Under the pieces are notes generated by a model. It worked only from the letters and a program-made list of their open reading frames with translations. It was not told the DNA's origin and did not search any database. The position numbers and the translations under genes were made by a program. Positions 7,463 to 30,657 of a stretch of 47,228 nt of DNA are shown in pieces (position 1 is the first letter of the stretch; each line of letters begins with the position of its first letter). Origin of the DNA: an uncultured Bacilli bacterium (lineage in GTDB: Bacteria > Bacillota_I > Bacilli_A > RF39 > UBA660). The stretch lies in the NCBI GenBank assembly GCA_934132925.1, contig CAKPAL010000002.1:1-47228 (forward strand). Direction: 5' to 3'.

Positions 7463-9343
7463 CTAATAATTTATTATTATAATTTCTTGCCTATCTTGAC
7501 GATTTCTTTTTGTTATTTGATTATTTACGATTAATTTATAATTATTGTTTTTAATCCATTCAGTTAATTTTGAATTAATTTTTTCATTTCTATTCTTCAT
7601 ATTGGACAACATAAATTTTATTTCTTTTTTATTCAACCTATCCAGGAAATCAAGAAGTTCTTGTTCTTGATTTTCATCCCACCCGTTGAACCCCCTTTTA
7701 CCATCGTTATAAGCACCACACGATATCAAATATGGCGGATCACAATAAACAAAGTCGTCTTTTGAAATTTCGTTTTCAAATGACTTGTAGTCCATAGACT
7801 TAAAAACTATATTAATTGATTTTGTTCTGTTAGAATAAGAGGTCAATTTTTCAAGCATTTCTTGATTATATCCTGAATTTCCACATGGATTATTAAATTC
7901 TAAATTATTATTAAATCTTATTTGATGTTCAAAGCCATAGCAGATTAACAAATATAAATCAAGTGGATTTCTACTTCCAATTTGGTTTGAGTTATATTTT
8001 TTTCTAAAATTGACATAGGCTTCTTTATTCTTTTTTTCTAAATTATATTTTTTTATTGTCTTTTCAATATAGTTATAAGTTGTTAAAAATTTATCTCTTG
8101 ATATTTTTTCTAAAAGATCCCTTACCATCCAATTTATATCATTATAAATTACTTTTTCACAATTTACATTTATTCCAACGGTACCACCGCCGCCAAACAA
8201 ATCATAAAAAGTATTTATGTTTTTTGGTAAGTTACTTTTTATCAATGGCAATATTTCATATTTACCGCCAATATAATTAAGTGGTGATATGTAATATGGT
8301 TCCTCTTTTTTTTCAATGTAAAATAACCATTCATAATGTCTTTTATTTTTAGTATTTTCCTTTAGTTCACGATTCACAGCTCGAGTATTCTTATATTTTA
8401 CAAAATCTATTTTTTTAAATACATAAGTCCCTTCTTTTGCATACCTCTTCATAACTTTTTCAATAAATTCTTTTGACATTATACCGGCATCACTATAACT
8501 AAATATAATATGTTTAAATTTTGCATTCGCTATCAATTTTTCAAATTCCTCGTGTACGCAACCTTTTCTGCACCACATAGAAATTTGATTTCCATTATCT
8601 CTATGTGCACCTATTCCATGAATTTCTGGATTATCATTTTTTGCAATTGTTTCAAGCACATGATATTGACTTACATATTGAGTTGATGTATATGGCGGAT
8701 CCAAATACAAAATATCACCAGAAATTTTATTTATCAAATCATTAGCATCAAGCATATAAACCTCATTATTATATTTTGGTTCTCCATATGTTTCTAATGG
8801 TATAAATTCCATATTTTTTATAGCCCTAGGATCCCAAATTTTTAAATATGCAGAATAAACTCCTGCTACATTTGACACTTTGCTTGCACTTTCTAATAGA
8901 CTTCCTATTAAATAATATTTTTCATTTTCATCTATCTTTTTCTCATCAAACCATATATCTATAGTATTTCTAATATAATCTATTTTTTTTGCATTTTCAT
9001 CTGAAAAATATTGCCTACCAGAAATTTCTGGAGCAAAATTATTATAACAAAAACCATCTTTATATTTGCTTGTATCAACATTATTAAAGTATTCAAATGG
9101 ATCAAATCCTAATTTTTTAAAGAAAGTTTTTGATTTATATTTTAACTTGCCATTACAAATAGTATATGAAAAATAAAGATTATCATTTGCAATTATTTCA
9201 TATCTGTTTTTGAAATAATCTCCAACTGTACAAGTTCCGGAGAAAAGATCACAAAATATCATCCCTTTTTTGTTAATTTTCTTTGAAATTAAAAACTTAT
9301 CAATAACTTCTAAAAGTTTTGTTTTATTTCCTATATATCTCAT
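7463..9343 (-). CDS. Tandem two-domain N6-adenine DNA methyltransferase (D12/Dam class x2, M.FokI-like architecture)
   Basis: Two complete modules. The first is MRYIGNK...DLFSGTCTVG...YLDPPYTSTQY and the second is LNYIGGK...DLFGGGGTVG...YCDPPYLIS. Confidence 0.9.
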   Translation of the reverse strand: MRYIGNKTKLLEVIDKFLISKKINKKGMIFCDLFSGTCTVGDYFKNRYEIIANDNLYFSYTICNGKLKYKSKTFFKKLGFDPFEYFNNVDTSKYKDGFCYNNFAPEISGRQYFSDENAKKIDYIRNTIDIWFDEKKIDENEKYYLIGSLLESASKVSNVAGVYSAYLKIWDPRAIKNMEFIPLETYGEPKYNNEVYMLDANDLINKISGDILYLDPPYTSTQYVSQYHVLETIAKNDNPEIHGIGAHRDNGNQISMWCRKGCVHEEFEKLIANAKFKHIIFSYSDAGIMSKEFIEKVMKRYAKEGTYVFKKIDFVKYKNTRAVNRELKENTKNKRHYEWLFYIEKKEEPYYISPLNYIGGKYEILPLIKSNLPKNINTFYDLFGGGGTVGINVNCEKVIYNDINWMVRDLLEKISRDKFLTTYNYIEKTIKKYNLEKKNKEAYVNFRKKYNSNQIGSRNPLDLYLLICYGFEHQIRFNNNLEFNNPCGNSGYNQEMLEKLTSYSNRTKSINIVFKSMDYKSFENEISKDDFVYCDPPYLISCGAYNDGKRGFNGWDENQEQELLDFLDRLNKKEIKFMLSNMKNRNEKINSKLTEWIKNNNYKLIVNNQITKRNRQDRQEIIIINY

Positions 9344-9395: not shown

Positions 9396-10289
9396 CTATT
9401 TTTTATTAACTTTTAAGGACTGTTTTATTAATGGCATAACATTATCTATATCATCTTCATCAGATATTTCTACTCTATAATCACCATTGCCCCAATGGCC
9501 AACATTTGTTATATCCCGTGTTATACCTAGTGGATCATTTAATGTTCCTTTTTTCATATTAATATCTAGTCTCAATTTATTCTGAGTAAACTCTACATCA
9601 ACTATGTTTTTTCTTCCTTTAAAAGCAATATATACTTTCTTTACATCTATATCAATATCATCTAATTCTAATATTCTATTTTTTAATATATTATAAAGTC
9701 TTCTGGTTTTTTCAGATACTTTGTTTAAATGATCATCTTCTATATATACTTTAATTTCTTTATTAATTTCTTTTTGTTCTGATTCTATTTGTATATCTTC
9801 TACTTTTACATTGCTTGTCTTCTTTATAAATTCTATATCCACTATATCTTCTTCATATCTTGTAACTTTAATCAAATCTACAGGAATGTTTTTAAAATCA
9901 GTAGCATTAAGTTGATAACTTGTATAAATTGGCGACGCAAATATAATTCTTGACTGACTCCAATCTACGTCTGATAATTTTAAATTAGAATCATTTTTTT
10001 CATTATACTTTAGTACAAACTCCGCTTTTCTCTCTAATAACAATTTTAAATACGTATATCCTTGATCTACTAAACTATGATTTTTAATGTTCTTATATTC
10101 TATAATTCTAAACGATTTACTCTCCTCATCATATGCTAAGGTATCTAGTCTAAAATTGCCCACAGCAAATTCTGTCTCTACAAATTTATATCCAAGAATC
10201 TTTTGCAAATTTTCCTCAAAGTATTTTTGTAATTCTTTTTCATTTTTAAAATCTTTTTGTTTTAATTCTTTATTATCTTTTATTATCAT
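9396..10289 (-). CDS. PD-(D/E)xK nuclease-like N-domain fused to a DUF5655-like C-domain
   Basis: N-terminal FRLDTLAYDE...RIIEYKN (D...ExK). C-terminal ...YIAFKGRKNIVDVEF...NVGHWGNGDYRVEISDEDDIDNVMPLIKQS, typical of DUF5655 as I recall it. Confidence 0.7.
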   Translation of the reverse strand: MIIKDNKELKQKDFKNEKELQKYFEENLQKILGYKFVETEFAVGNFRLDTLAYDEESKSFRIIEYKNIKNHSLVDQGYTYLKLLLERKAEFVLKYNEKNDSNLKLSDVDWSQSRIIFASPIYTSYQLNATDFKNIPVDLIKVTRYEEDIVDIEFIKKTSNVKVEDIQIESEQKEINKEIKVYIEDDHLNKVSEKTRRLYNILKNRILELDDIDIDVKKVYIAFKGRKNIVDVEFTQNKLRLDINMKKGTLNDPLGITRDITNVGHWGNGDYRVEISDEDDIDNVMPLIKQSLKVNKK

Positions 10290-10425: not shown

Positions 10426-11697
10426 TTACTCCATATTTAATATTTTTTTTATTTCTTCTATCAAAGGATTATTAAGAGTCAAATAGTTATCTATATTTTT
10501 AGAAAGTTTTGCTTTCACTGTATCTTCATTTCGCTTACCTTCAATAACTGTTACATCAAAAAATTCTTTTTTTGTTGATGGAACTTCTTTTATATTTAAA
10601 TTTAATATTTTATTTACTGCATCTAACGGTGCATACAATTCAATACATTCTCTTTTTAATGCTCTTTCTTCATTAGTATCGCCGTCTTTTACTACAAAGC
10701 ACTTTTTACCAGAAGTTTCAAGTTCTTTCTTTAAATATTCAATGTTGTCGCAACCACCTCCCGGTAGTACAAAATACTCATCTGCTTTTCCTAGAAGTTT
10801 AAGTGCTGACTTAATCCACTCCAAATCGTATGCACCTTCAACTAATATATAATTTTTAGAATTTACGTTATCTAGACTCTCAAGTAATTCTATCAATGAA
10901 CTATTCTTGTCATTAAACAACGGATATATATTTGCTCCATTTCTTGCATTTAAAATTTGTGCTGAATGTGTCGTTATTAATGTCTGCCCTATTTTGTTGT
11001 GTATTTTTTTTATCATGCTTTTTGCATTGTTAATAGAAAAAGAGTTTTCTATTTCATCAATCCCTAAAATTACATTATCAAATTTATTTCCTATAATCAA
11101 TGCATATAATAAATTTTTTTGAAAACCCGAACCTCTCGCTTCTATTGGAATACCATTTGCGGTAATATCAAATTTCAAGCTTGCATCATATTTAAATTTT
11201 TGTTCTCCAACAATTTCCGTAGAACTCTCATCCAATATTATAAAATTTCTATCAACGCCTTTTATTACCTCAGTTATAGAATTTTGAGATATGTCTTTAA
11301 GTTTCTGTAATAAGTCTTCATCTGTATTTTCCAATGTTTTTGCTATTGACAATTGTTGTATCATTTGTTTTACATCATAATTACCAACAGGAATATAAAT
11401 ATACTTTATTCCACTTAGGTCATCAATATTTTCAGGGACTACATTTAGTTTATAAGATGCACCAGTGTATTCTTTTTTATAAAATTTTCCATTATACATA
11501 ATTCCTATTTCAACTGTTTTCCCCTGCTCTCTTACAAATGATTTGTCAATTTTCTCTTGATTAAAAAATATGTCTAGGGCCTGCAGTATTGTAGATTTTC
11601 CAGAATCATTTTCTCCAATAAATAAATTGTGCTTTTTGATAACAATCGTTGCGCGTTCAAACTTTTTAAAATTTTTTATATAGATACTTTCTATCAT
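10426..11697 (-). CDS. OLD-family nuclease (ABC-type ATPase + C-terminal Toprim), compact 423-aa form
   Basis: Walker A GENDSGKST, Walker B ILGIDEIENS, H-loop TTHS. Toprim motifs ILVEGAYDLEWI and VVKDGDTNEE. Confidence 0.8.
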   Translation of the reverse strand: MIESIYIKNFKKFERATIVIKKHNLFIGENDSGKSTILQALDIFFNQEKIDKSFVREQGKTVEIGIMYNGKFYKKEYTGASYKLNVVPENIDDLSGIKYIYIPVGNYDVKQMIQQLSIAKTLENTDEDLLQKLKDISQNSITEVIKGVDRNFIILDESSTEIVGEQKFKYDASLKFDITANGIPIEARGSGFQKNLLYALIIGNKFDNVILGIDEIENSFSINNAKSMIKKIHNKIGQTLITTHSAQILNARNGANIYPLFNDKNSSLIELLESLDNVNSKNYILVEGAYDLEWIKSALKLLGKADEYFVLPGGGCDNIEYLKKELETSGKKCFVVKDGDTNEERALKRECIELYAPLDAVNKILNLNIKEVPSTKKEFFDVTVIEGKRNEDTVKAKLSKNIDNYLTLNNPLIEEIKKILNME

Positions 11698-11726: not shown

Positions 11727-11772
11727 AAAAAACGCCAGCACAAAAAATCTATTAAATAGACCTGTACTAGCG
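11727..11772 (-). terminator. Terminator-like leader hairpin + U6 ending 13 nt before the OLD-gene RBS
   Basis: On the minus strand, CGCUAGUACA...UGUGCUGGCG gives 10 bp, two of them G-U (C/A mismatches on the plus strand). There is an inner UCUAU/AUAGA helix, followed by UUUUUU. Confidence 0.65.
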
Positions 11773-12164
11773 TCTTTCTTTAACTAACTTAAGTATATCA
11801 AATTATTTTTATTTAATCAACAAATTTAGACAAATTTCTCCATACTAAAATAATATTAGTATATATCTATTGCTTATATATAATAGATGCAATAGGCATA
11901 TTGTTATTAGACCTAGGCTAATAACAACACTAATAAGACTTACATAGTAAGGCTTATAGTGAACATAATAAAATATATATAATTATTTATTATTAACTAT
12001 TTCTTCTAATATACTTCTTATAATGCTTTCTTCTCTACTACCATTAGTAGTTAATCTAATTAATGGTATATTATATTTAGATATAATATTACTCTTTAAT
12101 ATATCTCTTTCTTTTTGTTTATTATCTTCTTTATGATATTTATATCCATCTACTTCTACTGCTG
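11737..12164. repeat. Junction module copy 1 (about 428 bp, direct repeat of 16664-17092)
   Basis: By-eye alignment gives about 90 percent identity at a constant offset of 4927-4928 bp. Confidence 0.9.
11792..11820 (-). promoter_or_regulatory. Predicted sigma-70-type promoter TTGATT-17-TATACT inside junction module copy 1
   Basis: Hexamers and the 17-nt spacer read directly. Conserved in copies 2 and 3. Confidence 0.5.
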
Positions 12165-12201
12165 TAATGACATTTTTGAAAAAATAAACCTTAAGTTTCA
12201 T
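11983..12201 (-). pseudogene. Truncated DUF2726/DUF559-type (Vsr-like fold) endonuclease-domain remnant
   Basis: ...AVEVDGYKYHKEDNKQKERDIL...IPLIRLTTN. Only the C-terminal half of the domain is present, and the repeat boundary falls inside the domain at VEVDG. Confidence 0.6.
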
Positions 12202-14906: not shown

Positions 14907-16583
14907 CTATTCGTTTATACTATCAATGTTCAGTATTTCTTCCATAGACATTTCTTTATATTTTTCTATTAATTCTTTATTATAGATAATTTTTTCTTCC
15001 ATTTTTTCAAATTCATAATCTAATTTCTCTACTTTATCTAAAAATTCATTTTTAATTTTTGCTTCAATAGATTTTGTGTTATAACTAGAAAAGTTACAGC
15101 GAATATCTTTATTTCGTAAATCCTCAATATTTATTTCAGAATTAATAAAACCATCAAGAGATAATTCTTGTTCACCAATATAAATTTTTGTTTTATTTAT
15201 GTAATTATTAAAATATTCATTTTTTAAAATGTCTAGTAAAAATGATTTTTTTAAATCTTTTAAATCCTTAATTTTTTGACTTTTTGCATCATTAATTTCT
15301 TTAACAATTTGATTATTATTTTCAATTAATTCATTAATTAGCATTCTTATAAACTCTTTTTTAGAATTAAATATATTATACAAATCACCATCATATTCAA
15401 GTCTTTTATCAAAATCAGAAGGGTTGATATTTTTATAACTAATGATAGCAAACAATTGTGTATAGTCGATATCCTGATTATCTTTTAATACATCAATATA
15501 CATCTTAAATTCCATAAAAATATTATTTAATAATCTTCTATCTTGTATGTGTAGGCTTAATATGCTAAACAAATTCTCATTAATTGTTAACTCATATTTA
15601 TTTTGAATTTTTTTATATAATTCCATTATATATTGTTTTGCATTTTGGCTTGAAAACTTTGAGATGACTGGTATTATATTATCAAAAAATTTCACTCGAT
15701 CCTCCGGATTTAAAAACAAATCATCCCTCAAAGCGTAAATAAAAATTACACCACCATTTTTAGAAATAGTTTCATTAGAATTCAACATGAAATTAAGTTC
15801 TTTCAATTTTTTAAATATTTCTAATGATATTTTCTCATATCTATCTAAGTCTTCTATGATAAGAATTTTAGTTTTTGTTTGTTTAAAAAAATATACAATT
15901 TCATCTAGATATTTATTAAATACCGACTTTTCATCATTATTCGAAAATGAAATTTCTAAGTCTTTATATTTCAGTGCTAAAGTATTTATATATATTTGAA
16001 TTATACTAATTAATTTATATATGCATAGAAATATAACTATAAAATATATATAATATATAATAAAGATAATACTATCAGAAAGGTATTGATGAAAAAAATT
16101 GTACAATGGAGTGAGCATGGCCTCATAAACCTCTGGAAAATAAAAATTTATACATAACATTATGAAACATGAAATTATTGCTAATGAAATTTTTTTTAAT
16201 CCACTAATATATTTAATTCTTTTAAATCTAGACAATGGCAATTTATTTTCATCAATAGTGTAAATTATTTGTTGTAATATTTTTGTTTCTATTTCATTAG
16301 AAACAATATTGGTTTCATCACCTGTTGCTTGTTTATAATTACCTAATGATATTCTTATACTTTTGTAACTATTATCTATTTTTTTTAATATTGAATTTAT
16401 TATACTAGTTTTACCAATTCCATATCTTCCTGTAAAAGCAATTATTTTATTTTTATGTTTAATTGCCTCCATAAAACTATTAAAATATATATTTTTTTCA
16501 TCAACATCATCTCTTGGAGCTAATGAAAAAAATATTTCATCTTTATTTTGCAATTCCTTCCTTTTAAAAACTTTTTTACTCAT
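14907..16583 (-). CDS. KAP-family P-loop NTPase with TM helices inserted in the NTPase domain (YobI/Tmn-like), ends at an in-frame TAG
   Basis: Walker A TGRYGIGKTS. Two to four hydrophobic helices at about aa 125-200. KAP-type Walker B ILIIEDLDRY. Confidence 0.85.
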   Translation of the reverse strand: MSKKVFKRKELQNKDEIFFSLAPRDDVDEKNIYFNSFMEAIKHKNKIIAFTGRYGIGKTSIINSILKKIDNSYKSIRISLGNYKQATGDETNIVSNEIETKILQQIIYTIDENKLPLSRFKRIKYISGLKKISLAIISCFIMLCINFYFPEVYEAMLTPLYNFFHQYLSDSIIFIIYYIYFIVIFLCIYKLISIIQIYINTLALKYKDLEISFSNNDEKSVFNKYLDEIVYFFKQTKTKILIIEDLDRYEKISLEIFKKLKELNFMLNSNETISKNGGVIFIYALRDDLFLNPEDRVKFFDNIIPVISKFSSQNAKQYIMELYKKIQNKYELTINENLFSILSLHIQDRRLLNNIFMEFKMYIDVLKDNQDIDYTQLFAIISYKNINPSDFDKRLEYDGDLYNIFNSKKEFIRMLINELIENNNQIVKEINDAKSQKIKDLKDLKKSFLLDILKNEYFNNYINKTKIYIGEQELSLDGFINSEINIEDLRNKDIRCNFSSYNTKSIEAKIKNEFLDKVEKLDYEFEKMEEKIIYNKELIEKYKEMSMEEILNIDSINE

Positions 16584-16663: not shown

Positions 16664-17092
16664 AGCACAAAAAATCTATTAAATAGACCTGTACTAGCGT
16701 CTTTCTTTAACTAAATTAAGTATATCAAATTATTTTTATTTAATCAACAAATTTAGACAAATTTCTCTATACTAAAATAATATTAGTATATAGTTATTAC
16801 TTATATATAATAGATACAATAGGCATATTGTTATTAGACCTTAGGCTAATATCAACACTAATAAGACTTACATAGTAAGGCTTATAGTGAACATAATAAA
16901 ATATATATAATTATTTATTATTAACTATCCCTTCTAATTTACTTCTTATAATACTCTCTTCTCTACTACTATTAGTAGTTAATCTTATTAATGGTATATT
17001 ATATTTAGATAGTATATTATTCTTTAATATATCCCTTTCTTTTTGTTTATTATCTTCTTTATGATATTTATATCCATCTACTTCTACCGCTA
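16664..17092. repeat. Junction module copy 2
   Basis: Direct repeat of 11737-12164. Confidence 0.9.
16719..16747 (-). promoter_or_regulatory. Predicted promoter TTGATT-17-TATACT (module copy 2)
   Basis: Identical hexamers and spacing to copy 1. Confidence 0.5.
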
Positions 17093-17255
17093 ATAATGGT
17101 TTTTTACTTATATTATTATATATTAAGAAATCTATATGAGTATTATGGTGAGAAGTATATTTTCTTTCTTCTTCTGTTAATAATGTTTTATCTTTTATTA
17201 ATATATCTAAAATTTTATTTATGTTTTCTTTTATATAAATATACTCCTCCTGATA
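16911..17255 (-). pseudogene. DUF2726-like ORF (114 codons) lacking an ATG/GTG/TTG start
   Basis: Own translation gives ...HIDFLIYNNISKKPLLAVEVDGYKYHKEDNKQKERDIL...IPLIRLTTNSS...NNK*. The only candidate start is an ATT behind AGGAGG. It overlaps the end of the upstream gene by 41 nt. Confidence 0.55.
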
Positions 17256-17823: not shown

Positions 17824-17890
17824 TCTTTCTTTAACTAAATTAAGTATATCAAATTATTTTTATTTATTCAATATATTTTGACAATTTTCT
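17784..17890. repeat. Junction module copy 3 (promoter + leader half only)
   Basis: Aligns to 11733-11840 and 16664-16765. Confidence 0.85.
17843..17871 (-). promoter_or_regulatory. Predicted promoter TTGAAT-17-TATACT (module copy 3)
   Basis: Read directly. Confidence 0.5.
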
Positions 17891-18069
17891 TATTCATCAT
17901 CTTCTGAATAATAATCATCATCTTCTAGTTCTTCTTCTTCAAAGTTAAATGAATCATACTTATTTTCTTTTACTAATTCTTTTTTCCAATCTTCTAAATC
18001 ATTATTATCTTTTTTATTATTGTCTTGAGTATCTGCAAATGCTTTTATTAAGTTCCATATCAAACACAT
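17890..18069 (-). CDS. Small, extremely acidic protein (59 aa from the ATG behind GGTGGTGAG)
   Basis: The C-terminal half is almost pure D/E/Y (FEEEELEDDDYYSEDDE). The track start at 18084 is a TTG. Confidence 0.55.
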   Translation of the reverse strand: MCLIWNLIKAFADTQDNNKKDNNDLEDWKKELVKENKYDSFNFEEEELEDDDYYSEDDE

Positions 18070-18117: not shown

Positions 18118-18390
18118 TTAATATTTTATATCTTCCCCTAAGCCATTAACAAAATTAATATCAACATCAATTATTTTAAGCACTTCAAAATATTTACTAT
18201 TTTCTGTTATTCTTGGACTTATGTTTATATTAAACTTTTGATATAAATATTTTTGTAAAAAGTTGTATATGTCATGTCCTCTTATATAATTAGCATTATT
18301 TTCGAATTTTATTGATACATTATTAAAATAATCCATTATTAAATCATTTTTCCCTATTACTTCTTTAATCTTTTTATTTTGTCTTTCCAT
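18118..18390 (-). CDS. ORF that is probably the C-terminal part of the Toprim/DUF4435-like protein (reached by a -1 shift)
   Basis: No RBS. Its frame stays open for 44 codons upstream of its ATG, back into the A7 tract region of the upstream ORF. Confidence 0.5.
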   Translation of the reverse strand: MERQNKKIKEVIGKNDLIMDYFNNVSIKFENNANYIRGHDIYNFLQKYLYQKFNINISPRITENSKYFEVLKIIDVDINFVNGLGEDIKY

Positions 18391-19106
18391 TAAGTTTTTT
18401 CTAAAATAATAGTTATACTTTCCAGTAAAATCAAAGTCAAAAATATCTTCTGCTGTAATTTTTTTACCGGTTTTTTTCCATATAAGAATTCTACTCTGGT
18501 TGATGGTAAGTACGTATGATATTTACACTTTTTACATGCTATTGTAGTACTACACTTTAAACGATTATAGTATGAAACTTCTTTAATAAATCTATTTAAA
18601 TATATTATAAATTCATTTAGATCTGCTTCTGTTAATTTAAAATATTCAAATATTTTTCTTATATTTCTTTTTGAAAAGAAATAATTTTCAAATGCGTAAC
18701 CATTTGTAATATTAAAAACTTTTTTATTTAAATATTTTTCATCATAATATTCACTCAATAACCCATAATTATCGCTATCAATTATAAAAATAGATTTCTT
18801 TAGTAAGTATTTAAAGTTTACATATGAATTAATTTCATAATATTTTTTTATCACACTTTCTTTTCCTACACGGCATTCCTTTATTTCATCGTTTTTTGTG
18901 AGTCCAGTAATAAATTTTATTTTTTTGTTACTAATAGATAAATTTTGAATATTTCCATAAAAATCCTCATCTGTTGGTCCTTCAACATAGCAAATATAAT
19001 CTAAATCTTCATAATTTCTGATTATATTTGTATCTATAATTACTGATGATATTGGGGGATACGTTCTATTATTTAAGAACGAATCTTTAAAATTATTATA
19101 ATTCAT
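18390..19106 (-). CDS. Toprim/DUF4435-like nuclease (AriB-like), N-terminal frame
   Basis: CYVEGPTDEDFY (Toprim Glu) and FIIDSDNYG (DxD-like). Start overlaps the ATPase stop by 11 nt. The last roughly 27 aa (...PVKKLQQKIFLTLILLESITIILEKT) look out of frame. Confidence 0.7.
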   Translation of the reverse strand: MNYNNFKDSFLNNRTYPPISSVIIDTNIIRNYEDLDYICYVEGPTDEDFYGNIQNLSISNKKIKFITGLTKNDEIKECRVGKESVIKKYYEINSYVNFKYLLKKSIFIIDSDNYGLLSEYYDEKYLNKKVFNITNGYAFENYFFSKRNIRKIFEYFKLTEADLNEFIIYLNRFIKEVSYYNRLKCSTTIACKKCKYHTYLPSTRVEFLYGKKPVKKLQQKIFLTLILLESITIILEKT

Positions 19107-20553
19107 TATTTTTCTCCATTGGAAGGCATATTAAATAATCTAAATATTCATCGTGGCTAACTATATATGGTGATTGCGTTGCAATTATTAGCCTATTATA
19201 ATTACAGCTTATTATATCCTTAATTAATTCCTTTTGCCATACTGCTGACAAAGATGTTTCTGGTTCATCTATCAATACAATCATATTATCTGAAAAAACT
19301 AACGTCGTAAATAATATAATTATCTTTTTTTCACCTTCTGACAGTTCATTAAAATATATATCGTTTTTATAATCACTAGTAGATATTAAAATACCAAATG
19401 GCGTTGCTATAACTTCTTTGTTATTAAAATACTTCTTAAATATATTGTTTAATTTATCTAATTTATCGTTTTTTATATTTAAATATTTATTCCCAAATTT
19501 ATCAAGTAATGCGCAAAGTAACTCATAGCCATCACCATCTTTAAACCATATATCATTGTATCCTTCATTAAGCTTATTATTTAATATATTATTTTCAGGT
19601 AATAGTGGTTTTATATAAGCTAATATTTTATTATACTCTGTTTTACTTATGTTATGTTTTATTTGTAATTTTTCTGTATTATCAATATTTTCATAAATAA
19701 AATCATATAGATTTTCTTTAAAAGTATCGATATCTTTTTTACTATAAATATTACTAAACAACAATTTACTAATATTCAATTTATTTGATATTCTTTCTTT
19801 TTCAAAATTCATTTGATAATTTTCTTTTAGTTTATCAATATATTTTTTATCTAAGTACCTTTTTTCTTTTTTTGCTCTATAGCTAAGTAAAGGCTTTGCT
19901 TTGTATTCTTCATTTTGATCTATATCCTCTATTAATTCATTATTAAACAAATTAGTAACGTCATAATCATTTGATAATTTAAGAAAAAGAATATCATTAA
20001 ATTTTAATTCATTGATCATACTTTTAATTTTAACATGTAAATTACTCATATTACTATCTTGATAATAATAGCCATCTTCTACTACTATTTTTGATTTTAA
20101 ATATATATTTTTAATTATTGGTTCTATATAACTTAAAAAACCATCATTAAAACCATCATTAACAAAATACCTTAAATCTCTCTTATTATTTAAAAGTCTA
20201 AAATCCTTGTTTAATTTATATAGTTTTCTATAATCTAATTCATTTAGGAATTCCATTAACATATCTGATGGTTCTTCTGAATTATACTGAATTTTATAAT
20301 TTTCATATATATAATCATTTGTTAGACATAAGTCGCTATATTTTATAGTTACAGTATCATTATCATTTATTATTTCTATTGACTCAAAATAATAGTCCTG
20401 TAATTTAATGTATCTAAATTCTAATAAGCATTTCAAAATACTAATTGTAGTTGATTTTCCGATTCCATTTTCTCCGATAAAAATATTTATTTTATTATCA
20501 AAATTAATTTCATTATTATATTGACCAAATATTTTATTTATTTTTATTTTCAT
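19096..20553 (-). CDS. ABC/SMC-like AAA ATPase (AriA/PtuA-like)
   Basis: Walker A GENGIGKST, signature-like LSEGEKK, Walker B MIVLIDEPETSLS, ATQSPY. Start moved to the ATG at 20553 behind AAAGGAGAGAG; the track start is 20688. Confidence 0.8.
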   Translation of the reverse strand: MKIKINKIFGQYNNEINFDNKINIFIGENGIGKSTTISILKCLLEFRYIKLQDYYFESIEIINDNDTVTIKYSDLCLTNDYIYENYKIQYNSEEPSDMLMEFLNELDYRKLYKLNKDFRLLNNKRDLRYFVNDGFNDGFLSYIEPIIKNIYLKSKIVVEDGYYYQDSNMSNLHVKIKSMINELKFNDILFLKLSNDYDVTNLFNNELIEDIDQNEEYKAKPLLSYRAKKEKRYLDKKYIDKLKENYQMNFEKERISNKLNISKLLFSNIYSKKDIDTFKENLYDFIYENIDNTEKLQIKHNISKTEYNKILAYIKPLLPENNILNNKLNEGYNDIWFKDGDGYELLCALLDKFGNKYLNIKNDKLDKLNNIFKKYFNNKEVIATPFGILISTSDYKNDIYFNELSEGEKKIIILFTTLVFSDNMIVLIDEPETSLSAVWQKELIKDIISCNYNRLIIATQSPYIVSHDEYLDYLICLPMEKNNEL

Positions 20554-20659: not shown

Positions 20660-20688
20660 ATTATAATGTTTATCATTAGTCTTGTCAA
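20660..20688 (-). promoter_or_regulatory. Consensus sigma-70 promoter TTGACA-17-TATAAT for the PARIS-like operon
   Basis: Perfect hexamers and a 17-nt spacer on the minus strand. Confidence 0.7.
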
Positions 20689-20883: not shown

Positions 20884-21222
20884 TTATTTAGTTAATGTTA
20901 ATGTTCTTATTTTAAATTCTTTAGTATCATAACCCCATAGATTAGATACGAATCTTGTATTATTTATTATTATATTTTCTTCTTTATGATCATGACCATA
21001 TATCCATACTGGTGATTTATATTCTTTTACTTCTGTATAGTAACAAGAGTTATTACCCCTACTATTACTTTTATTTCTAAATGGTGGTACATGAGTTATT
21101 ATTAAATCTATATTATTTGGTAAGTTATTATACCAGGATATGCTATCGTTATGTAGTTTTTGTATTTTTTCTTTTTTGGTACTTATATTATATTGAAATG
21201 TGTAAATTGTGTCAAATAAAAA
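20884..21222 (-). pseudogene. Metallophosphoesterase C-terminal remnant (no start codon)
   Basis: Own translation gives ...NNIDLIITHVPPFRNK...SPVWIYGHDHKEEN...TLTK*, with the GNH(D/E)-less tail motifs ITHxPP and GHxH. The open frame is only 112 codons and contains no Met. Confidence 0.6.
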
Positions 21223-21300: not shown

Positions 21301-22710
21301 TTACCTTACAATATATAAATATGGTTCTTTCTTTAACTCATTAAACTCTGATTGAGTTATTGTCTTAATTGTTACATCTGGTCCATTAATTAAAACATAA
21401 TATATTATACTATATTTACAATCGTAATCTTTGCATACTCCTTCTAGAATATCTATTTCTTTTTGGGTAATAAAGAATGGCTTATCTTTAGTTCCATAAG
21501 ATGTTTTAACTTCAATACAAATATGTTCTCTTGATTCATTAAAACTTATTATATCATAACCTAATCCATCAAAAGTTATTTCATCATTAACTTCTGCTAC
21601 TACTTTTACTTCATTAATTAAATCATTAAATCCTAGTTCTTGTAATTTTTGCTTTTCGGCTTCAAGTACTATTTTTTCTCCTACTTTTCCATGGGCTATT
21701 TTTGTTTCATTTTCTTTTGAATAATTATGATGTGCTCCTTTTGATCTTTTGCTACTACTTATTTTGGTATTTGTATGATATTTTTCATTAGAGAAATTTA
21801 TATTATATATTTCTTTTGTTTTAGTATTATCATTATCTATTATTACTTTATTCTTTTCTTCGTAAGTAATTTCATCTGACTTGTCGTATGTTTGTTCTAA
21901 TACTAACTTTAGCATTCTTTCATAGTCATAATTAGTAATATTTTCATCTCTTAGTCCTTTGCTTTCCATATAGTACATAAGTGCTTCTGGGTATGTTTCC
22001 ATTTTCTTCATAAATTTATTGGAAAGTCCTTGTTGTTTTCTCATGTAACGTAATTGATTTTTACTGATGTTAAAGAGATCTGCTACTAGTGAATCTGCTA
22101 TTCCTTCTTTTATGGATAATTCAAATAAAATATCATATGTTAAATCTTCTTTATTGAATTGTTTGCCACTTTTCTTCTCTTCACATAACTCATTATATAG
22201 TTCTTTATTATCGTTAAGTACATATTCTTTTTCTTGTCCTTTTAAGGTATTGGCCTTGTTAGTAGCATATTCTATTACTTTTTTCATATTATTTATGCGA
22301 TAATCTCTATCTATTTCTTTACTAATTAAATCTTTTTGTACTTTTTCTCTAGTAAAATCTATCTCTGATATTTTTTTGATGTAGTTATCTTTATGTGGAA
22401 CTCCCGTTAATAATAATTTTGCTAGTTCATCTGCTAATTCTTTCCTTATTTTATTACTTATGTATGAATTTTGGTAATCTATATAATCTAAAATAACTTC
22501 TATATTTCTTATGGTGTCTTCAAGATAAATGTTAGTTATTTCTTTTTGCTTTCTGATATTGTCAAATTCCCTGGTTGTTATATTAAAGGCTTCAGCAATC
22601 TCTTTAACAAGATATGGTTTATTAATTAATTTGATTAGTTCTTCAGATGATAAATCATATATACTATATTTATCTGCATAGTATTTTAAATCATGTTTAG
22701 TTAAATCCAT
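21301..22710 (-). CDS. DUF3883-type (restriction-endonuclease-like fold) C-terminal domain protein with two N-terminal HTH-like modules
   Basis: C-terminus HGKVGEKIVLEAEKQKLQELG...GYDIISFNESREHICIEVKTSYG...FFITQKEI. The N-terminus has repeated (I/F)N(I/T)(T/S)..(F/L)..(I/M)RKQ(K/Q) segments. Confidence 0.75.
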   Translation of the reverse strand: MDLTKHDLKYYADKYSIYDLSSEELIKLINKPYLVKEIAEAFNITTREFDNIRKQKEITNIYLEDTIRNIEVILDYIDYQNSYISNKIRKELADELAKLLLTGVPHKDNYIKKISEIDFTREKVQKDLISKEIDRDYRINNMKKVIEYATNKANTLKGQEKEYVLNDNKELYNELCEEKKSGKQFNKEDLTYDILFELSIKEGIADSLVADLFNISKNQLRYMRKQQGLSNKFMKKMETYPEALMYYMESKGLRDENITNYDYERMLKLVLEQTYDKSDEITYEEKNKVIIDNDNTKTKEIYNINFSNEKYHTNTKISSSKRSKGAHHNYSKENETKIAHGKVGEKIVLEAEKQKLQELGFNDLINEVKVVAEVNDEITFDGLGYDIISFNESREHICIEVKTSYGTKDKPFFITQKEIDILEGVCKDYDCKYSIIYYVLINGPDVTIKTITQSEFNELKKEPYLYIVR

Positions 22711-23495: not shown

Positions 23496-25097
23496 TCATA
23501 TTTTGTTTATCATCTCACAATAATCATCATAATTACCAATATATCTAGTTATGTTCTTATTTTTTATTTCGATTATACTAGTAGCTATTTTATTTATGAA
23601 ATACCTGTCATGGGATACAAATAATATAGTACCAGTGAATTCTTGTAGTGACTCTTCGAGCATTTCTCTTGTATCGATATCAATGTGATTAGTTGGTTCA
23701 TCTAGGATTAAGAAGTTATATGAATCTTGAATTAGACAGAATATTTTTAATCTTACTTTTTCTCCTCCTGATAAGTATTTTATTTTTTTATGAATGTTTT
23801 CTCCTGCAAAAAGATATTTGAATAAAGCACTTCTTAAATATTGTTCTGGTCCAATGAAATATTTTCTGGCTTCTTCTAGTACTGATAAATTAATATTATC
23901 AAACTCTATCTCTTGAGGAATGTAACCTATCTTGATATTACTTCCTAGTTTTATATTATTATTTCCTTTTAATATTTCTTTGATTAAGGTTGATTTACCA
24001 ACTCCATTATTTCCAACTAAACAGAGTCTATCTTGATATTTAATACTTAAGTTAAGATTATTAAATATTTCTTTAGTGCCATAAGATAGATTTAGATTAT
24101 TTATTGTTAAGACATCTTTTCCTGACCTACTGGCGGTATCAAAAGTTATATTTGGTTTTTTCTTTTCTTCTGGTTTATCTAACTTTTCTAATTTTTCTAA
24201 TCTTTTTTCAATACTAGCAGCTCTTCTAAAGAATATTTCTCCGCCACTTGGTCCACAAAGTTTACCATATTCTTTTAATCTTTTGATACTATTTTCCATA
24301 GCGGTTATTTGTTTTTGTTGGTCTTTATAGTTTTTTAATTCTAGTAATAGTCTATTTTCACTTTCTTTAATATAATAACTATAATTACCATGATATACTT
24401 CTATTCCTCTTTTGGTTAATAAATATACTTTGTTTATGACATTATCCGTGAAATAGCGGTCATGGGATACTAGTATTATTGTTCCTTTATAGTTCTTTAA
24501 TGTTTTTTCTAACCAAATCATTTTATTTATATCTAAATGGTTAGTGGGTTCATCTAATAATAAGACATCTGGTTCTTGTAATAATAATCTTATTAGAGAT
24601 ATGATGGTTTTTTCTCCTCCGGATAGGGTATTGAAATTTCTATTTAATATTTCTTCAGTTATATTAAATACTGGTAGTATTTTTTGAATCTTTGTTTCGT
24701 ATTCATAGCCTCCTAGTGAGATAAACTTCTCTTGCATATTCATATACTTTGTTATTACTTTATAATCTTCAGTTAAAAGTTTATCTTCATATCTTTCTAG
24801 TTTTTCTTGTAGTTCTATTATTTCTTTGAAGGCACTATTTATATAGTCTTTTACTATTATATCTTTTTCTTCGGGTATTTGACTTAAATAGCCTATACTT
24901 ATATTATTTCTTATTGAAAGGGAACCGGAATCTATACTTTCTTGGCCTGCAATTATTTTTAGTATAGTACTCTTTCCACTTCCATTGGTTCCAATTAAAC
25001 CTACTTTTTCTCCTTTTTGTATTGTTATATCAATATTATTTAGTACTAAGTCAAAACCAAATGACTTACATACTTTACTTATATTTATATCTATCAT
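23496..25097 (-). CDS. ABC-F family ATPase (two ABC domains, inter-domain linker); possible antibiotic-resistance (ARE) type
   Basis: GTNGSGKST/LSGGEK/LLLDEPTNHLD and GNNGVGKST/LSGGEK/LILDEPTNHID, with no TM segments. Start moved to the ATG at 25097 behind GGGAGG; the track start is 25139. Confidence 0.88.
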   Translation of the reverse strand: MIDINISKVCKSFGFDLVLNNIDITIQKGEKVGLIGTNGSGKSTILKIIAGQESIDSGSLSIRNNISIGYLSQIPEEKDIIVKDYINSAFKEIIELQEKLERYEDKLLTEDYKVITKYMNMQEKFISLGGYEYETKIQKILPVFNITEEILNRNFNTLSGGEKTIISLIRLLLQEPDVLLLDEPTNHLDINKMIWLEKTLKNYKGTIILVSHDRYFTDNVINKVYLLTKRGIEVYHGNYSYYIKESENRLLLELKNYKDQQKQITAMENSIKRLKEYGKLCGPSGGEIFFRRAASIEKRLEKLEKLDKPEEKKKPNITFDTASRSGKDVLTINNLNLSYGTKEIFNNLNLSIKYQDRLCLVGNNGVGKSTLIKEILKGNNNIKLGSNIKIGYIPQEIEFDNINLSVLEEARKYFIGPEQYLRSALFKYLFAGENIHKKIKYLSGGEKVRLKIFCLIQDSYNFLILDEPTNHIDIDTREMLEESLQEFTGTILFVSHDRYFINKIATSIIEIKNKNITRYIGNYDDYCEMINKI

Positions 25098-25112
25098 AAT
25101 ATTCCTCCCATC

Positions 25113-25148
25113 AAAAAAAGTTATATGAATATATTGCATCCATATAAC
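25113..25148 (-). terminator. Leader (attenuator) terminator directly upstream of the ABC-F RBS
   Basis: On the minus strand, GTTATATG-13 nt-CATATAAC is followed by TTTTTTT, then GATGGGAGG and the ATG. Confidence 0.7.
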
Positions 25149-25671: not shown

Positions 25672-26649
25672 CTACTTTAAATCTATATCAAAAGAATAGT
25701 CATAGCTTATTTTTTCACATTTATTAGTATTTTTGAATGCTTCTTCTTTATGAGAATAATCCACAATTTCTTTAACAGTATAATTTTTAAAATATTTTTT
25801 TATTTTATTTAATACATCTAATTCTTCTTTGGTAAATAAATCTTTATTAAATTCTTTCTTTGGTGTTATTTCATAATATTCTTTAGATGTGGTTATTATT
25901 GGTTCGTAGTCTATTATATCTTCTTGATATCCTTTTGATAATATTGTTTCAAAGCGATCCGGAACTGGGCCAAATGGTAATTTACAATATTCTAGTCCTG
26001 TTATTGACTTACAATTTTCTTTATAAAATAAGAAGTCAGCATAAAACATTTCTTTTAATAGTTTGGTTTTTAATATTGTATTATCCGCGAGATAAATAAT
26101 CATATTATATACCTTTTCTTTATTTAATTTAGTATAACCGTTATACTCTGTTGGATTATATTCTTCGCTTAGCAATAATTGCTTTTCGTTATTAGCTAAG
26201 AATATAGATATCTTATCATTAATCTTATTATATTCTTTATCAGTAAATTGTACTTTATTGGCTTCAACTAAGTTTGTTATTATTTCTGGACTAGCTATTA
26301 AACTTTTTATTAGTATTAGATAACTATCATTTGGTATAGATACTCCTTTTTCATAACTTATTAATGTCTTTTTAGCACAACCGATTACTTTAGAAAATAA
26401 TTCTTGGGATAGGTTATATTTTTTTCTTAAGGCTATTATTTCTTCTTTTGTTACTCCATACAATTTATTATATATTTCTATACCTTTTTCAGAAGCAATA
26501 TTATCTAATTTCTCGTCATATACTAAATTATTACATTTTGAGCAAAATCTTCTATCTGAATTAAATTTTATCTCTTTTCCTTTTATTTGGTAGATATGTT
26601 CATGATTCTTAACATAAGTATCAGTACTACCACAATTATCACATCTCAT
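25672..26649 (-). CDS. MqsA-like antitoxin (Zn-ribbon + XRE HTH) fused to a C-terminal Panacea/DUF4065 (SocA-like) domain
   Basis: CDNCGS...CSKCNN zinc ribbon. HTH LSQELFSKVIGCAKKTLISYEKG. C-terminus MFYADFLFYKENCKSITGLEYCKLPFGPVP, typical of DUF4065. Confidence 0.75.
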   Translation of the reverse strand: MRCDNCGSTDTYVKNHEHIYQIKGKEIKFNSDRRFCSKCNNLVYDEKLDNIASEKGIEIYNKLYGVTKEEIIALRKKYNLSQELFSKVIGCAKKTLISYEKGVSIPNDSYLILIKSLIASPEIITNLVEANKVQFTDKEYNKINDKISIFLANNEKQLLLSEEYNPTEYNGYTKLNKEKVYNMIIYLADNTILKTKLLKEMFYADFLFYKENCKSITGLEYCKLPFGPVPDRFETILSKGYQEDIIDYEPIITTSKEYYEITPKKEFNKDLFTKEELDVLNKIKKYFKNYTVKEIVDYSHKEEAFKNTNKCEKISYDYSFDIDLK

Positions 26650-27677: not shown

Positions 27678-28052
27678 TTACTCCTTTTCTATGGTAGTTC
27701 TACCACTTATTCTATTATCACTATCTTTAATCCAAAGATAATATTTTTTATATGTAAAGTAAGAACTTTCTGCTTTATTATTTTCTATTTTATTCCAGCA
27801 TAATGAATCTACACTGGGAACACTCTTGGTTGTTTTTAGGCAGTATTCAGTAGGGTTTCCTGTTGTTGTTATTATTAATTTACCATTTTCTTTAGTGACA
27901 TCTTCTATTTTAGCAGTCATATTTTCATTAGGTTTAGCGTAATACTGATTATTATCACTATCTGGTAAGATATTTTTAGCAACAATGAAACTAAATACTG
28001 ATAAGACGAGAATACCTCCAAGTGCTATGAATGTGCTATTATTATTTTTCAT
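27678..28052 (-). CDS. Small membrane-anchored/secreted hypothetical protein
   Basis: N-terminal TM/signal FIALGGILVLSVFSFIV. Start overlaps the ATPase stop. Confidence 0.7.
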   Translation of the reverse strand: MKNNNSTFIALGGILVLSVFSFIVAKNILPDSDNNQYYAKPNENMTAKIEDVTKENGKLIITTTGNPTEYCLKTTKSVPSVDSLCWNKIENNKAESSYFTYKKYYLWIKDSDNRISGRTTIEKE

Positions 28053-30657
28053 TTTTAACCTCCCTGTAATCTTTAAATAATTTTGTATATATTGGTTTTA
28101 CTAGTTCTCCTAATACAAACATTATAAGACATATTCCAATAGTTATCAAGATATAACTTATTTTTATATTTGGTACTATGAAGTATTTACTTATTGGAGT
28201 TACTAATACTATGATTTGAACTAATAGTATTAATGATACTCCTAGTGTTAATTTTTTATTTGAAAAGATATCTTTATTTAGTACTGATTTTTTTATGTTA
28301 CGACAAGAGAATGAGAATAATAATTCATGAGTTACTAAGTAGATAAATAATAATGAACCTGCGGTATTTACATCTACTGTTTTAGCAAAGTAAATGAATA
28401 TTATCAACATTACTACTGATTTTATGATAGCTCCAATTACTATTTTGGCTGTTAATAATGGGGTAAAGAAACTTTCGTTGTATTTATTAGCAAGAGTATT
28501 TTCCATTTGGTCATCTTGTTTCTTTTCAAAGGCTAACATAATAGCAGGTATACTATCTGTTACTAGGTTTATCCATAGTAATTGCAAAGTTGTAAACATT
28601 TCCATATTTAGTACCATGGATATGAATACTAGAAGTACTTCAACTATATTGCCTGCTAGTAAGTATAGAATTATTTTCTTGATATTAGCAGTTATTCTTC
28701 TTCCTTCTTCAACGCCATCGACAATGGTTGAAAAACTATCATCTACAAGGATACAATCTGCAACTTTTTTTACTACTTCAGTTCCGGTTATACCCATACC
28801 TATTCCGATATCAGCTTTTTGAATAGCAGGAGCATCATTTACACCATCACCAGTCATGGCTACGACATAACCATTGCTTTGAAGAGCATCCACTATTCTT
28901 AATTTGGTACTTGGTGATATTCTAGCATAAACATTATATTTTTTTACGGCTTCTTTTAATTCATCATCAGTCATTTTGTCTACTATTTTACCAGTAGTGG
29001 CTCCCTCATCAGTATCGATAATGCCAACACTTTTAGCGATAGCACGAGCAGTATTTATACTATCTCCGGTTATCATAACTATTTTTATTCCAGAATTTTT
29101 ACATGTATTAATAGCAGTTGGTACGGAACTTCTTGGTGGATCCATCATACCTATTAATCCGATAAATATCATATCTTTTTCTGGATTAGTTGTATTTTCA
29201 TTTTTATAGGCTAAGGCTAGGATACGAAGAGACTTTTCTGATTCTTCCTCTTCTATTTTGAATATTTTTTCTTTATATTCTGTAGTTATATTATATAGTT
29301 TGTTATCTTCTAGATAATAAGTACAATTATGTAAGACAGAGTCTAGACTTCCTTTAGTAAAAGAATATTCTTTATTATCTATTATATTTATAGTACTCAT
29401 CATTTTTCTATCGAAATCAAATGGATACTCTTTTACTCTAGGGATATTTGTTAGAGTATTTTTTTCTTCTAGATATTTATAGATTGCTACTTCGGTTTCA
29501 TCTCCTAAATATTTATCGTTATTCTTAGTTACATTTTGACAACTTGATAAACAATAGTTATATAGATTTATGTTAGCAATGCTGTCTTTTTCGGTATATA
29601 ATTTATTGTTTACATAGATACTTTTTACTTGCATTTTATTTTCGGTAATGGTTCCTGTTTTATCAGAACAGATTATGTCAGTAGAACCTAATGTTTCAAC
29701 AGAAGCCATTTTTCTTATAATTACATTTCTTTTAGCCATCTCAGACATTCCTAGGGATAATATTATGGTTATTACTGAGGACATACCTTCAGGAATAGCG
29801 GCGACCGCTAGGGAGATTGATAGCATTAGGATATCAAAGAAATCATTCTTTTTAAGGAGACCTACAGCCATCATAACTATTATTATACCGATTATGATAT
29901 AGGTTAATACTTTACTTATTTGGTTTACTTTCTTTTGAAGGGGAGTTAGTTCATTCTTATTATTCATAAGACTAGCTCCTATTTTACCTAATTCGGTATT
30001 CATAGCGGTATTACACACTACGACAAAGGAATGACCATTTGTTACATTACATCCAGCATAGACCATATTTTTTCTTTCATATAATTCTTTTTCTTCAGTT
30101 ATATCTATATTGTCTTTCTTAATACTTTTTGATTCTCCAGTTAGGGTTGATTCATTTACTTCAAGAACTTCTGATGATATTATTCTAGCATCAGCGGATA
30201 CATAGTCACCGGCTTCTAGTTCTATTATATCTCCTGGTACGATCTTTCTTACATCAATTGTTTCTTTCTTACCATCTCTTATAACATTATTGTTAGTTAT
30301 AAACATTTTATTTAGTTCTTCGATAGCTTTATCGGCTTTCTTCTCTTCAATAAAACTTAGGGTAGCATTTATTATGACAATTATTAGAATTATTACTGAG
30401 TCAGCATATGATTCTTTTTGAATATAAGATATTACCGCAGAAAATACTGAAGCAAAGATAAGTAATATTATCATGAGGTCATTAAACTGACTTAAAAAGA
30501 TTATGATATTTGGTTTCTTTTTGCGTTCTGCTAATTTGTTTTCACCATATTTTTCTAATCTCTTACTTGCTTCTTCTTCAGTTAAGCCATTTATACTTGT
30601 ATTTAATTCTTTATATAATTCTTCTACTTTTTTATTATAATAATTATTTTCTTTCAT
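28042..30657 (-). CDS. P-type (P2, Ca2+/cation-translocating) ATPase
   Basis: ICSDKTGTITENKM, MITGD, TGDGVNDAPA, about 10 TM segments, N-terminal cation-ATPase-N motif. Confidence 0.92.
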   Translation of the reverse strand: MKENNYYNKKVEELYKELNTSINGLTEEEASKRLEKYGENKLAERKKKPNIIIFLSQFNDLMIILLIFASVFSAVISYIQKESYADSVIILIIVIINATLSFIEEKKADKAIEELNKMFITNNNVIRDGKKETIDVRKIVPGDIIELEAGDYVSADARIISSEVLEVNESTLTGESKSIKKDNIDITEEKELYERKNMVYAGCNVTNGHSFVVVCNTAMNTELGKIGASLMNNKNELTPLQKKVNQISKVLTYIIIGIIIVMMAVGLLKKNDFFDILMLSISLAVAAIPEGMSSVITIILSLGMSEMAKRNVIIRKMASVETLGSTDIICSDKTGTITENKMQVKSIYVNNKLYTEKDSIANINLYNYCLSSCQNVTKNNDKYLGDETEVAIYKYLEEKNTLTNIPRVKEYPFDFDRKMMSTINIIDNKEYSFTKGSLDSVLHNCTYYLEDNKLYNITTEYKEKIFKIEEEESEKSLRILALAYKNENTTNPEKDMIFIGLIGMMDPPRSSVPTAINTCKNSGIKIVMITGDSINTARAIAKSVGIIDTDEGATTGKIVDKMTDDELKEAVKKYNVYARISPSTKLRIVDALQSNGYVVAMTGDGVNDAPAIQKADIGIGMGITGTEVVKKVADCILVDDSFSTIVDGVEEGRRITANIKKIILYLLAGNIVEVLLVFISMVLNMEMFTTLQLLWINLVTDSIPAIMLAFEKKQDDQMENTLANKYNESFFTPLLTAKIVIGAIIKSVVMLIIFIYFAKTVDVNTAGSLLFIYLVTHELLFSFSCRNIKKSVLNKDIFSNKKLTLGVSLILLVQIIVLVTPISKYFIVPNIKISYILITIGICLIMFVLGELVKPIYTKLFKDYREVKNEK

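Follow-up and report, generated by a model that had tools for sequence, protein, structure and literature searches.

A one-base contraction in an adenine run splits the nuclease gene of a diverged PARIS-like pair in a human-gut Bacilli strain clade and probably inactivates it

PARIS is known from E. coli B185 and from P4-like satellites (PDB 8UX9, 8V46; PMC11464382, PMC9122126) and consists of an ABC-type ATPase of ~55 kDa, AriA, followed by a Toprim nuclease of ~35-38 kDa, AriB. The metal-binding residues of AriB are E26, D30, D88, E90 and E122, and its defence function is abolished by the E285R substitution, E285 being one of two such residues located in the predicted dimerisation interface (PMC11464382). 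A paper dealing with AriB specificity (PMC12409363) reports nothing on C-terminal residues. In PARIS, anti-restriction proteins of phages, Ocr among them, trigger the release and dimerisation of AriB, which cleaves tRNA-Lys. We describe here a gene pair of the same order, ATPase then nuclease, found at positions 18118-20553 of a 47,228-nucleotide (nt) stretch of DNA from an uncultured Bacilli bacterium (assembly GCA_934132925.1, contig CAKPAL010000002.1), the whole of which is referred to as the window. In this pair, the nuclease gene is broken into two open reading frames (ORFs) at a run of seven adenines (A7). A first reading of the bare sequence, referred to below as the original prediction, had proposed a PARIS-like pair with an effector split at this run, as a result of a sequencing error, of a phase-variable switch or of programmed -1 frameshifting. 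The most likely explanation is none of these three. With a probability of about 0.72, A7 represents a fixed, heritable loss-of-function (pseudogene) allele in a PARIS-type module of a defence island, carried by one strain clade of the human gut.

The pair comprises the following elements, lengths of proteins being given in amino acids (aa).

19096-20553, minus strand: AriA-like ABC/SMC-type ATPase, 485 aa, intact, with an ATG start after a GGAGAG ribosome-binding site.
18390-19106, minus strand: 5' part of the AriB-like Toprim nuclease, a 238-aa ORF.
18118-18470, minus strand: 3' part of the nuclease gene, shifted into the -1 frame and matching residues 213-329 of the single-ORF homologues.
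18118-18390, minus strand: 90-aa ORF, made of the last 90 codons of the nuclease 3' part, in the -1 frame.
18471-18477, minus strand: A7 run (T7 on the plus strand), site of a 1-nt loss relative to the A8 of intact alleles.
18459-18465, minus strand: second A7 run, 5 nt further on, where both frames are open; A8 in P0017-type alleles.
20660-20688, minus strand: candidate operon promoter TTGACA-17-TATAAT, ~100 nt upstream of the ATPase start, 12/12 with the consensus.

The ORFs, their motifs, the A7 run at 18471-18477 and the missing ribosome-binding site of the 90-aa ORF were all found as originally described. The ATPase carries the motifs GENGIGKST, LSEGEKK and LIDEPETS, and its mechanically called ORF reaches farther 5', to a TTG at 20688. 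Its stop overlaps the nuclease start by 11 nt, and the ATPase is translationally coupled to the nuclease. The candidate promoter is a consensus match only, promoter-like sites being no commoner in the region than in shuffled sequence. The 238-aa ORF, with the motifs YVEGPTDEDFY and IIDSD, is made of 212 native residues and a 26-residue out-of-frame tail, and its C-terminal end reads PVKKLQQKIFLTLILLESITIILEKT. The ATG of the 90-aa ORF shares one base with the preceding TAA of the 238-aa ORF (a TAATG stop/start overlap), no Shine-Dalgarno sequence precedes it, and the -1 frame stays open 5' of this ATG, beyond GGAAAAAAACC. A -1 shift at A_AAA_AAA leads to a protein of 329 aa, in line with the ~330 aa expected at the outset.

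Close homologues of the nuclease are single ORFs of 320-329 aa which span the junction and continue to the end of the 90-aa ORF, and more distant relatives are likewise single ORFs of ~300-330 aa. The two ORFs of the window are together collinear with these homologues over their whole length, beyond chance; the 90-aa ORF matches the C-terminal part of the homologues, none of which ends with the 238-aa ORF. One protein of the collection, P0025, is identical residue for residue to the predicted 329-aa fusion, so that the -1 join proposed at the first A7 proved exactly right. Its DNA carries GGAAAAAAAACC (A8), and the P0025 and P0016 alleles read GGA AAA AAA ACC/ACA GGT (A8) where the window has A7. 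The window and ten further loci (L002-L011) read GGAAAAAAACCGGT (A7) at the run, as against GGAAAAAAAACCGGT (A8) in the intact alleles L017, L018 and L025-L028 and GGAAAAAAAACAGGT (A8) in the intact allele L029; the intact alleles encode GKKTGKK from GGA AAA AAA ACC. Because P0025, an intact allele of the same species, has A8 here, the window carries an A8-to-A7 contraction, and the lesion, as judged from the aligned alleles, is a one-base contraction of the A8 run. Other alleles vary at the same place: the P0017-type loci L019-L024 read GGGAAAAAAACCGGAAAAAAAATT, that is GGG-A7-CC followed by GGA-A8-TT, and L001 has a synonymous variant, A7-GCT. Loss of a G beside the run, considered from the comparison of L001 (A7-GCT) with the window (A7-CC), was dropped, since the closer alleles read A8-CC.

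The 90%-identity cluster that contains the fragments of the window also holds intact 329-aa alleles, namely P0016 (34 contigs), P0017 (39), P0018 (20) and P0019 (18). Altogether, intact alleles of the same species are found on well over 100 contigs, and the 238-aa and 90-aa products of the split allele on 17-19. The ancestral state is the intact gene; the frameshift is a derived change, borne by a minority of copies and not conserved. The ten A7 loci, which come from about ten samples, are 100% identical to the window across all or the available part of a 2650-nt operon stretch, and their flanks are 99.65-99.96% identical to it. These contigs originate from Hadza and other human-gut studies and from SPAdes-style NODE, MEGAHIT-style k141 and Logan assemblies, one of them at ~21x coverage according to its name. 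Every A7 copy lies on one haplotype, and the A7 loci form one strain clade spread among hosts. The allele is genuine and, as far as these data go, arose once.

The 3' part of the window nuclease shows no further damage: compared with the intact gene of L001 it has 9 synonymous and 0 non-synonymous differences, a count that cannot date the frameshift; the split alleles do not differ from one another and therefore say nothing about selection after it. The intact 3' part and the lack of variation among split alleles fit a recent event and discriminate no further.

The assignment of the pair to PARIS relies on both proteins. The ATPase matches Pfam AAA_21 at 1.1e-13 (52.4 bits, for a cut-off of 27) and AAA_15 over residues 9-465, its top PADLOC match is AriA (4e-18), and in the PDB its sequence matches nothing at E<=0.01 but the AriA chains 8ux9_B and 8v45_A (1.3e-14). 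PtuA and GajA models match it more weakly, and the ATPase alone would not be diagnostic. For the nuclease, neither the 238-aa ORF, the 90-aa ORF nor the 329-aa fusion matched any Pfam or PADLOC model at E<=1, DUF4435 and AriB included, and no NCBIfam match was obtained. When 12 close homologues were scanned singly the best match was only Toprim_4 at 0.055, and a profile built from these 12 alone had no match in the PDB. A profile search of 1.84 billion representatives extended the family to 169 clusters at 50% identity, whose full-length members are usually ~300-330 aa and cover the whole profile. The 84-sequence profile of this family matches only AriB in the PDB (8ux9_A at 4.3e-4, 8v46_D at 9.3e-4), through an alignment that passes by VEG..D, F..D.(D/E) and ENYF, and 17 of the 84 members match DUF4435 (best 7.2e-15). 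Five acidic residues of the 238-aa ORF, E42, D46, D110, D112 and E140, are invariant in the family, and the motifs that contain them align in the family profile to AriB residues 18-160, the stretch in which the five metal-binding residues of AriB are located; the RGH motif of the nuclease 3' part aligns with AriB residues 233-248. The fused protein as modelled with AlphaFold2 (pLDDT 82, pTM 0.79) had the AriB chains 8v46_D and 8ux9_A as its best two Foldseek matches in the PDB (probability 0.98 and 0.96, 324-327 aligned columns, TM 0.40-0.43), all others having E>2. The link with AriB surfaced only with the 84-sequence profile and the structure model, at modest E-values and a TM of ~0.4.

The pair shares with PARIS the gene order, the five acidic Toprim residues and RGH motif common to AriB and the window nuclease, and a placement in a defence island. 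It differs from PARIS by a nuclease with only ~16% identity to AriB in the structural alignment, by a chromosomal location in a low-GC gut bacterium rather than on a phage satellite, by the occurrence of a 52%-identical relative (L012) in an uncultured Bacilli metagenome-assembled genome, and by the frameshift in its nuclease copy. The ATPase-then-nuclease adjacency is also seen in L012 and in L014-L016, L013 being a solo nuclease homologue. A megablast of the region against phage genomes gave no match, and a scan of GTDB genomes returned five loci, none of them from the species of the window. Taken together, remote homology supports a highly diverged PARIS-like system, homologous to PARIS and beyond the reach of the curated models; the most fitting description of the pair is that of a diverged member of the AriA/AriB superfamily, which may amount to a subtype. 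The PARIS-like call of the original prediction was thus borne out for the ATPase by direct matches and for the nuclease by profile and fold, and a direct DUF4435 or AriB model match was not obtained.

By analogy with PARIS, the ATPase of an intact system would sequester the nuclease until a phage trigger frees it, and the freed nuclease would dimerise and cut host RNA, probably tRNA, which would stop translation. In the clade of the window, replication slippage most likely removed one A, changing GGA AAA AAA ACC into GGA AAA AAA CC. Translation would then depart from the native frame after residue 212 and meet a stop 26 codons on, and the 238-aa product would retain the Toprim metal-binding residues and lose the last 117 residues. 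These 117 residues carry the conserved motifs DIFxFxF, RGH and NGxGE, and I222, F223, F225, F227, R276, G277, H278, N321, G322, G324 and E325 are invariant among close homologues. E285 of AriB falls in the part equivalent to the lost C-terminus. A contraction by slippage is plausible at reported rates, which are 3e-4 for T8 to T7 and 7e-6 for T7 to T8 in C. coli flhA, and 1e-4 for A9 to A8 and 1e-5 for the reverse change in B. subtilis swrA (PMC2831843). The module shows other signs of decay, with the remnant of a phosphoesterase gene beside the ATPase and damaged nuclease copies (P0007, P0011) elsewhere, and the A7 allele would be part of the normal turnover of defence islands. We infer the loss of function, as we do the PARIS-like mechanism, from these comparisons.

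Several points weigh against a simple loss of function. A_AAA_AAA is a perfect slippery heptamer in the zero frame, and some full-length protein could come from slippage of the ribosome or of RNA polymerase. The undamaged 3' part fits continued constraint and a very recent frameshift equally well, and the ATPase gene remains intact. Finally, an allele that has spread to many hosts is not strongly deleterious; selection could even favour it, whether for the lost function or for a low dose.

Among the other explanations, reversible phase variation holds up best, and we nevertheless consider it unlikely. The run would be a contingency tract for a toxic nuclease, ON at A8 and OFF at A7, of which the window would show the OFF state. 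The length polymorphism does occur exactly at the run, among alleles 97-99% identical (A8 in L017, L018 and L025-L029, A7 in the window and L002-L011), an OFF switch would be useful for a self-toxic effector, and the two adjacent runs would provide two routes to frame restoration. In swrA (A8/A9) and flhA (T8/T7), a one-base length change in an A/T run of 8 within the coding region likewise turns the gene off, and such runs switch at 1e-4 to 1e-5 (PMC2831843). However, in these two genes a single strain passes between the two states at measurable rates and the run is near the 5' end, whereas the nuclease of the window shows one event, about two-thirds along the gene, and public data contain neither revertants nor recurrences of it. 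All A7 contigs belong to one haplotype, of which no A8 copy was found; reversion of this haplotype to A8 could give no protein other than P0025, and P0025 is confined to DNA that is ~2.5% diverged. Switching was looked for in consensus sequences and by exact protein matches. Ten products of +1 or -1 slippage of either run were modelled on the P0016, P0017 and P0025 haplotypes, including the second-run compensatory revertant of the window allele, and all were absent from a collection of 15 billion proteins, despite the far greater abundance of the A8 haplotypes. Moreover, the run is not kept outside the species, where relatives read SKAGEK, PKTGQK and similar, and within the species synonymous variants shorten or shift it (GGG-A7, A7-GCT). 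A/T runs of at least 7 are as frequent in the window as expected from a first-order Markov model (85 against 84.7) and runs of 8 fall somewhat short of expectation (15 against 34), so the A7 run is not beyond chance and points to composition rather than to a special device. The reported reversion from 7 to 8 is also ~40 times rarer than the contraction (PMC2831843). Consensus assemblies hide minority variants, and phase variation, as proposed originally, keeps some weight; no revertant and no recurrence appeared in these searches.

More generally, the A7 allele might be a low-dose or reversible state, in which slippage of the ribosome or of RNA polymerase, or reversion from A7 to A8, would yield small amounts of full-length nuclease; this too seems improbable. 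If this were true, a lineage of gut commensals would possess an abortive-infection response that is tunable or bet-hedged, and the nuclease would be the first slippage-controlled effector of the PARIS type.

Recoding, programmed or merely tolerated, is somewhat more doubtful. Here a -1 ribosomal frameshift or transcriptional slippage would produce a low level of full-length nuclease and hence a low dose of a toxic effector. The sequence GG A_AAA_AAA CC is a canonical X_XXY_YYZ heptamer, in the correct frame where the two frames overlap, the -1 product is a natural full-length protein (P0025), and the 3' part is undamaged. A modest hairpin is also predicted just downstream, a 99-nt fold having a minimum free energy of -14.3 kcal/mol (z -2.58, 4 of 200 shuffles folding as well). 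However, the spacer between heptamer and hairpin is 0 nt, whereas -1 stimulators are typically spaced by 5-9 nt, the stem is rich in A-U pairs, and the hairpin is equally present in the in-frame alleles. No Shine-Dalgarno-like stimulator was seen upstream of the heptamer, and A7 is short for efficient RNA-polymerase slippage, which needs a run of about 9 or more. In dnaX and the IS1/IS3 transposases, which shift by -1 on A_AAA_AAA/G, the heptamer similarly lies in the zero frame, with the remainder of the protein encoded in the -1 frame, but there the two-frame arrangement is conserved among homologues and the stimulatory elements stand at a defined spacing. In the window nuclease the arrangement is confined to one clone-like allele, with the in-frame ancestor still circulating. 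Programmed -1 frameshifting, as put forward in the original prediction, found no support, the frameshift being a derived, minority state that no other family member shows, not even intact alleles of the same species with the same downstream sequence.

It is very improbable that the two ORFs form a functional split gene, in which the 238-aa Toprim fragment and the 90-aa peptide, coupled through TAATG, would assemble into an active nuclease. In its favour, the stop and start codons overlap, and the ATG corresponds to the conserved Met of the LMERQ motif. Against this, the ATG lacks a ribosome-binding site, a hydrophobic out-of-frame tail takes the place of residues 213-239 and of the conserved DIFxFxF within them, no other family member is split in this way, and TAATG is coincidentally present in intact alleles as well. 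An assembly or sequencing artefact, with a true A8 and an intact gene, is scarcely credible even for a single-base difference in a homopolymer, a classic error site, and was rejected, as at least 10 contigs, drawn from ~10 samples and from several studies and assemblers, show the identical A7, A8 is rightly called on other haplotypes by assemblies of the same kinds, and the 238-aa and 90-aa products are themselves recorded on 17-19 contigs.

Incomplete nuclease copies were seen at other places. P0011 is a 199-aa C-terminal nuclease remnant present on 24 contigs of another lineage (L030-L032, 4001-4600). Gene calling gave no ATPase within the 4 kb upstream of it, and two of these three loci have integrase genes close by. 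In P0007, nuclease residues 1-157 are fused to a GNAT acetyltransferase on a single 2.2-kb contig, which may be a chimeric assembly. L016, considered as a second frameshifted nuclease, was rejected, its nuclease being intact.

Two elements flank the pair.

17890-18069, minus strand: 59-aa ORF with a good ribosome-binding site, directly downstream of the nuclease.
20905-21180, minus strand: 5'-truncated remnant of a calcineurin-like phosphoesterase (Metallophos), detected by tblastn, residues 170-261 of a 267-aa protein at 92% identity.

The C-terminus of the 59-aa ORF is extremely acidic (…EEEELEDDDYYSEDDE), and it had no match in NCBIfam, the one library scanned. Despite differing outer flanks, most loci of the same species that reach beyond the nuclease have this ORF called next to that gene; L025 does not, and neither does the 52%-identical locus L012. 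The ORF may encode a partner of the pair, accessory or regulatory, or else a protein resembling a DNA mimic. An intact gene for the 267-aa phosphoesterase lies directly upstream of the ATPase in the sister strains L019-L029; the module of this species may include the phosphoesterase as a third component, which the window has lost.

The pair is located in a hypervariable defence island (~7400-28000) adjoining a P-type cation ATPase gene (28042-30657). The other genes of the island include the following.

7463-9343: type II methylase.
9396-10289: PDC-S18/DUF5655 protein.
10426-11697, minus strand: second AAA_15 ATPase, 423 aa, whose best PADLOC match is another AriA model (2.4e-23).
14907-16583: Tmn-like YobI ATPase.
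21301-22710: NOV_C/PDC-S36-like protein.
23496-25139: ABC-F-like ATPase.
25672-26649: SocA/Panacea-type pair.

The second AAA_15 ATPase has GajA and Old matches at its N-terminus and no obvious Toprim partner adjoining it. At the same site, sister strains carry DarTG, AbiE, GmrSD, Shedu genes and a type I restriction-modification system with an integrase and multiple hsdS genes. BLAST of the window against sister loci also disclosed a repeat of ~435 nt, ~95% identical between its copies at 11737-12169 and 16664-17098, each copy lying in a different intergenic region of the island, which may be a small mobile or recombination element. The G+C content varies from 19 to 33% along the window, in keeping with a low-GC host (~21-30%), and no tRNA genes were found in it. 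A/T homopolymers reach a ceiling at 8, none of 9 or more occurring in 47 kb despite ~25% G+C, which suggests selection against longer A/T runs in this organism.

The frameshift event is in itself ordinary, homopolymer slippage being a known way to inactivate a defence gene. The main value of the split allele lies in annotation and in a natural pair of intact and broken alleles: 18118-19106 should be annotated as one frameshifted pseudogene and not as two hypothetical proteins. The nuclease belongs to a small PARIS/DUF4435 branch of 169 clusters, so diverged that Pfam and PADLOC miss it; counts of such systems in low-GC gut bacteria are probably too low, and adding the family to defence-system hidden Markov model sets would be a modest practical gain. 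The locus also offers a clean example of functional loss in a defence island, since the species still has the intact ancestor allele in circulation.

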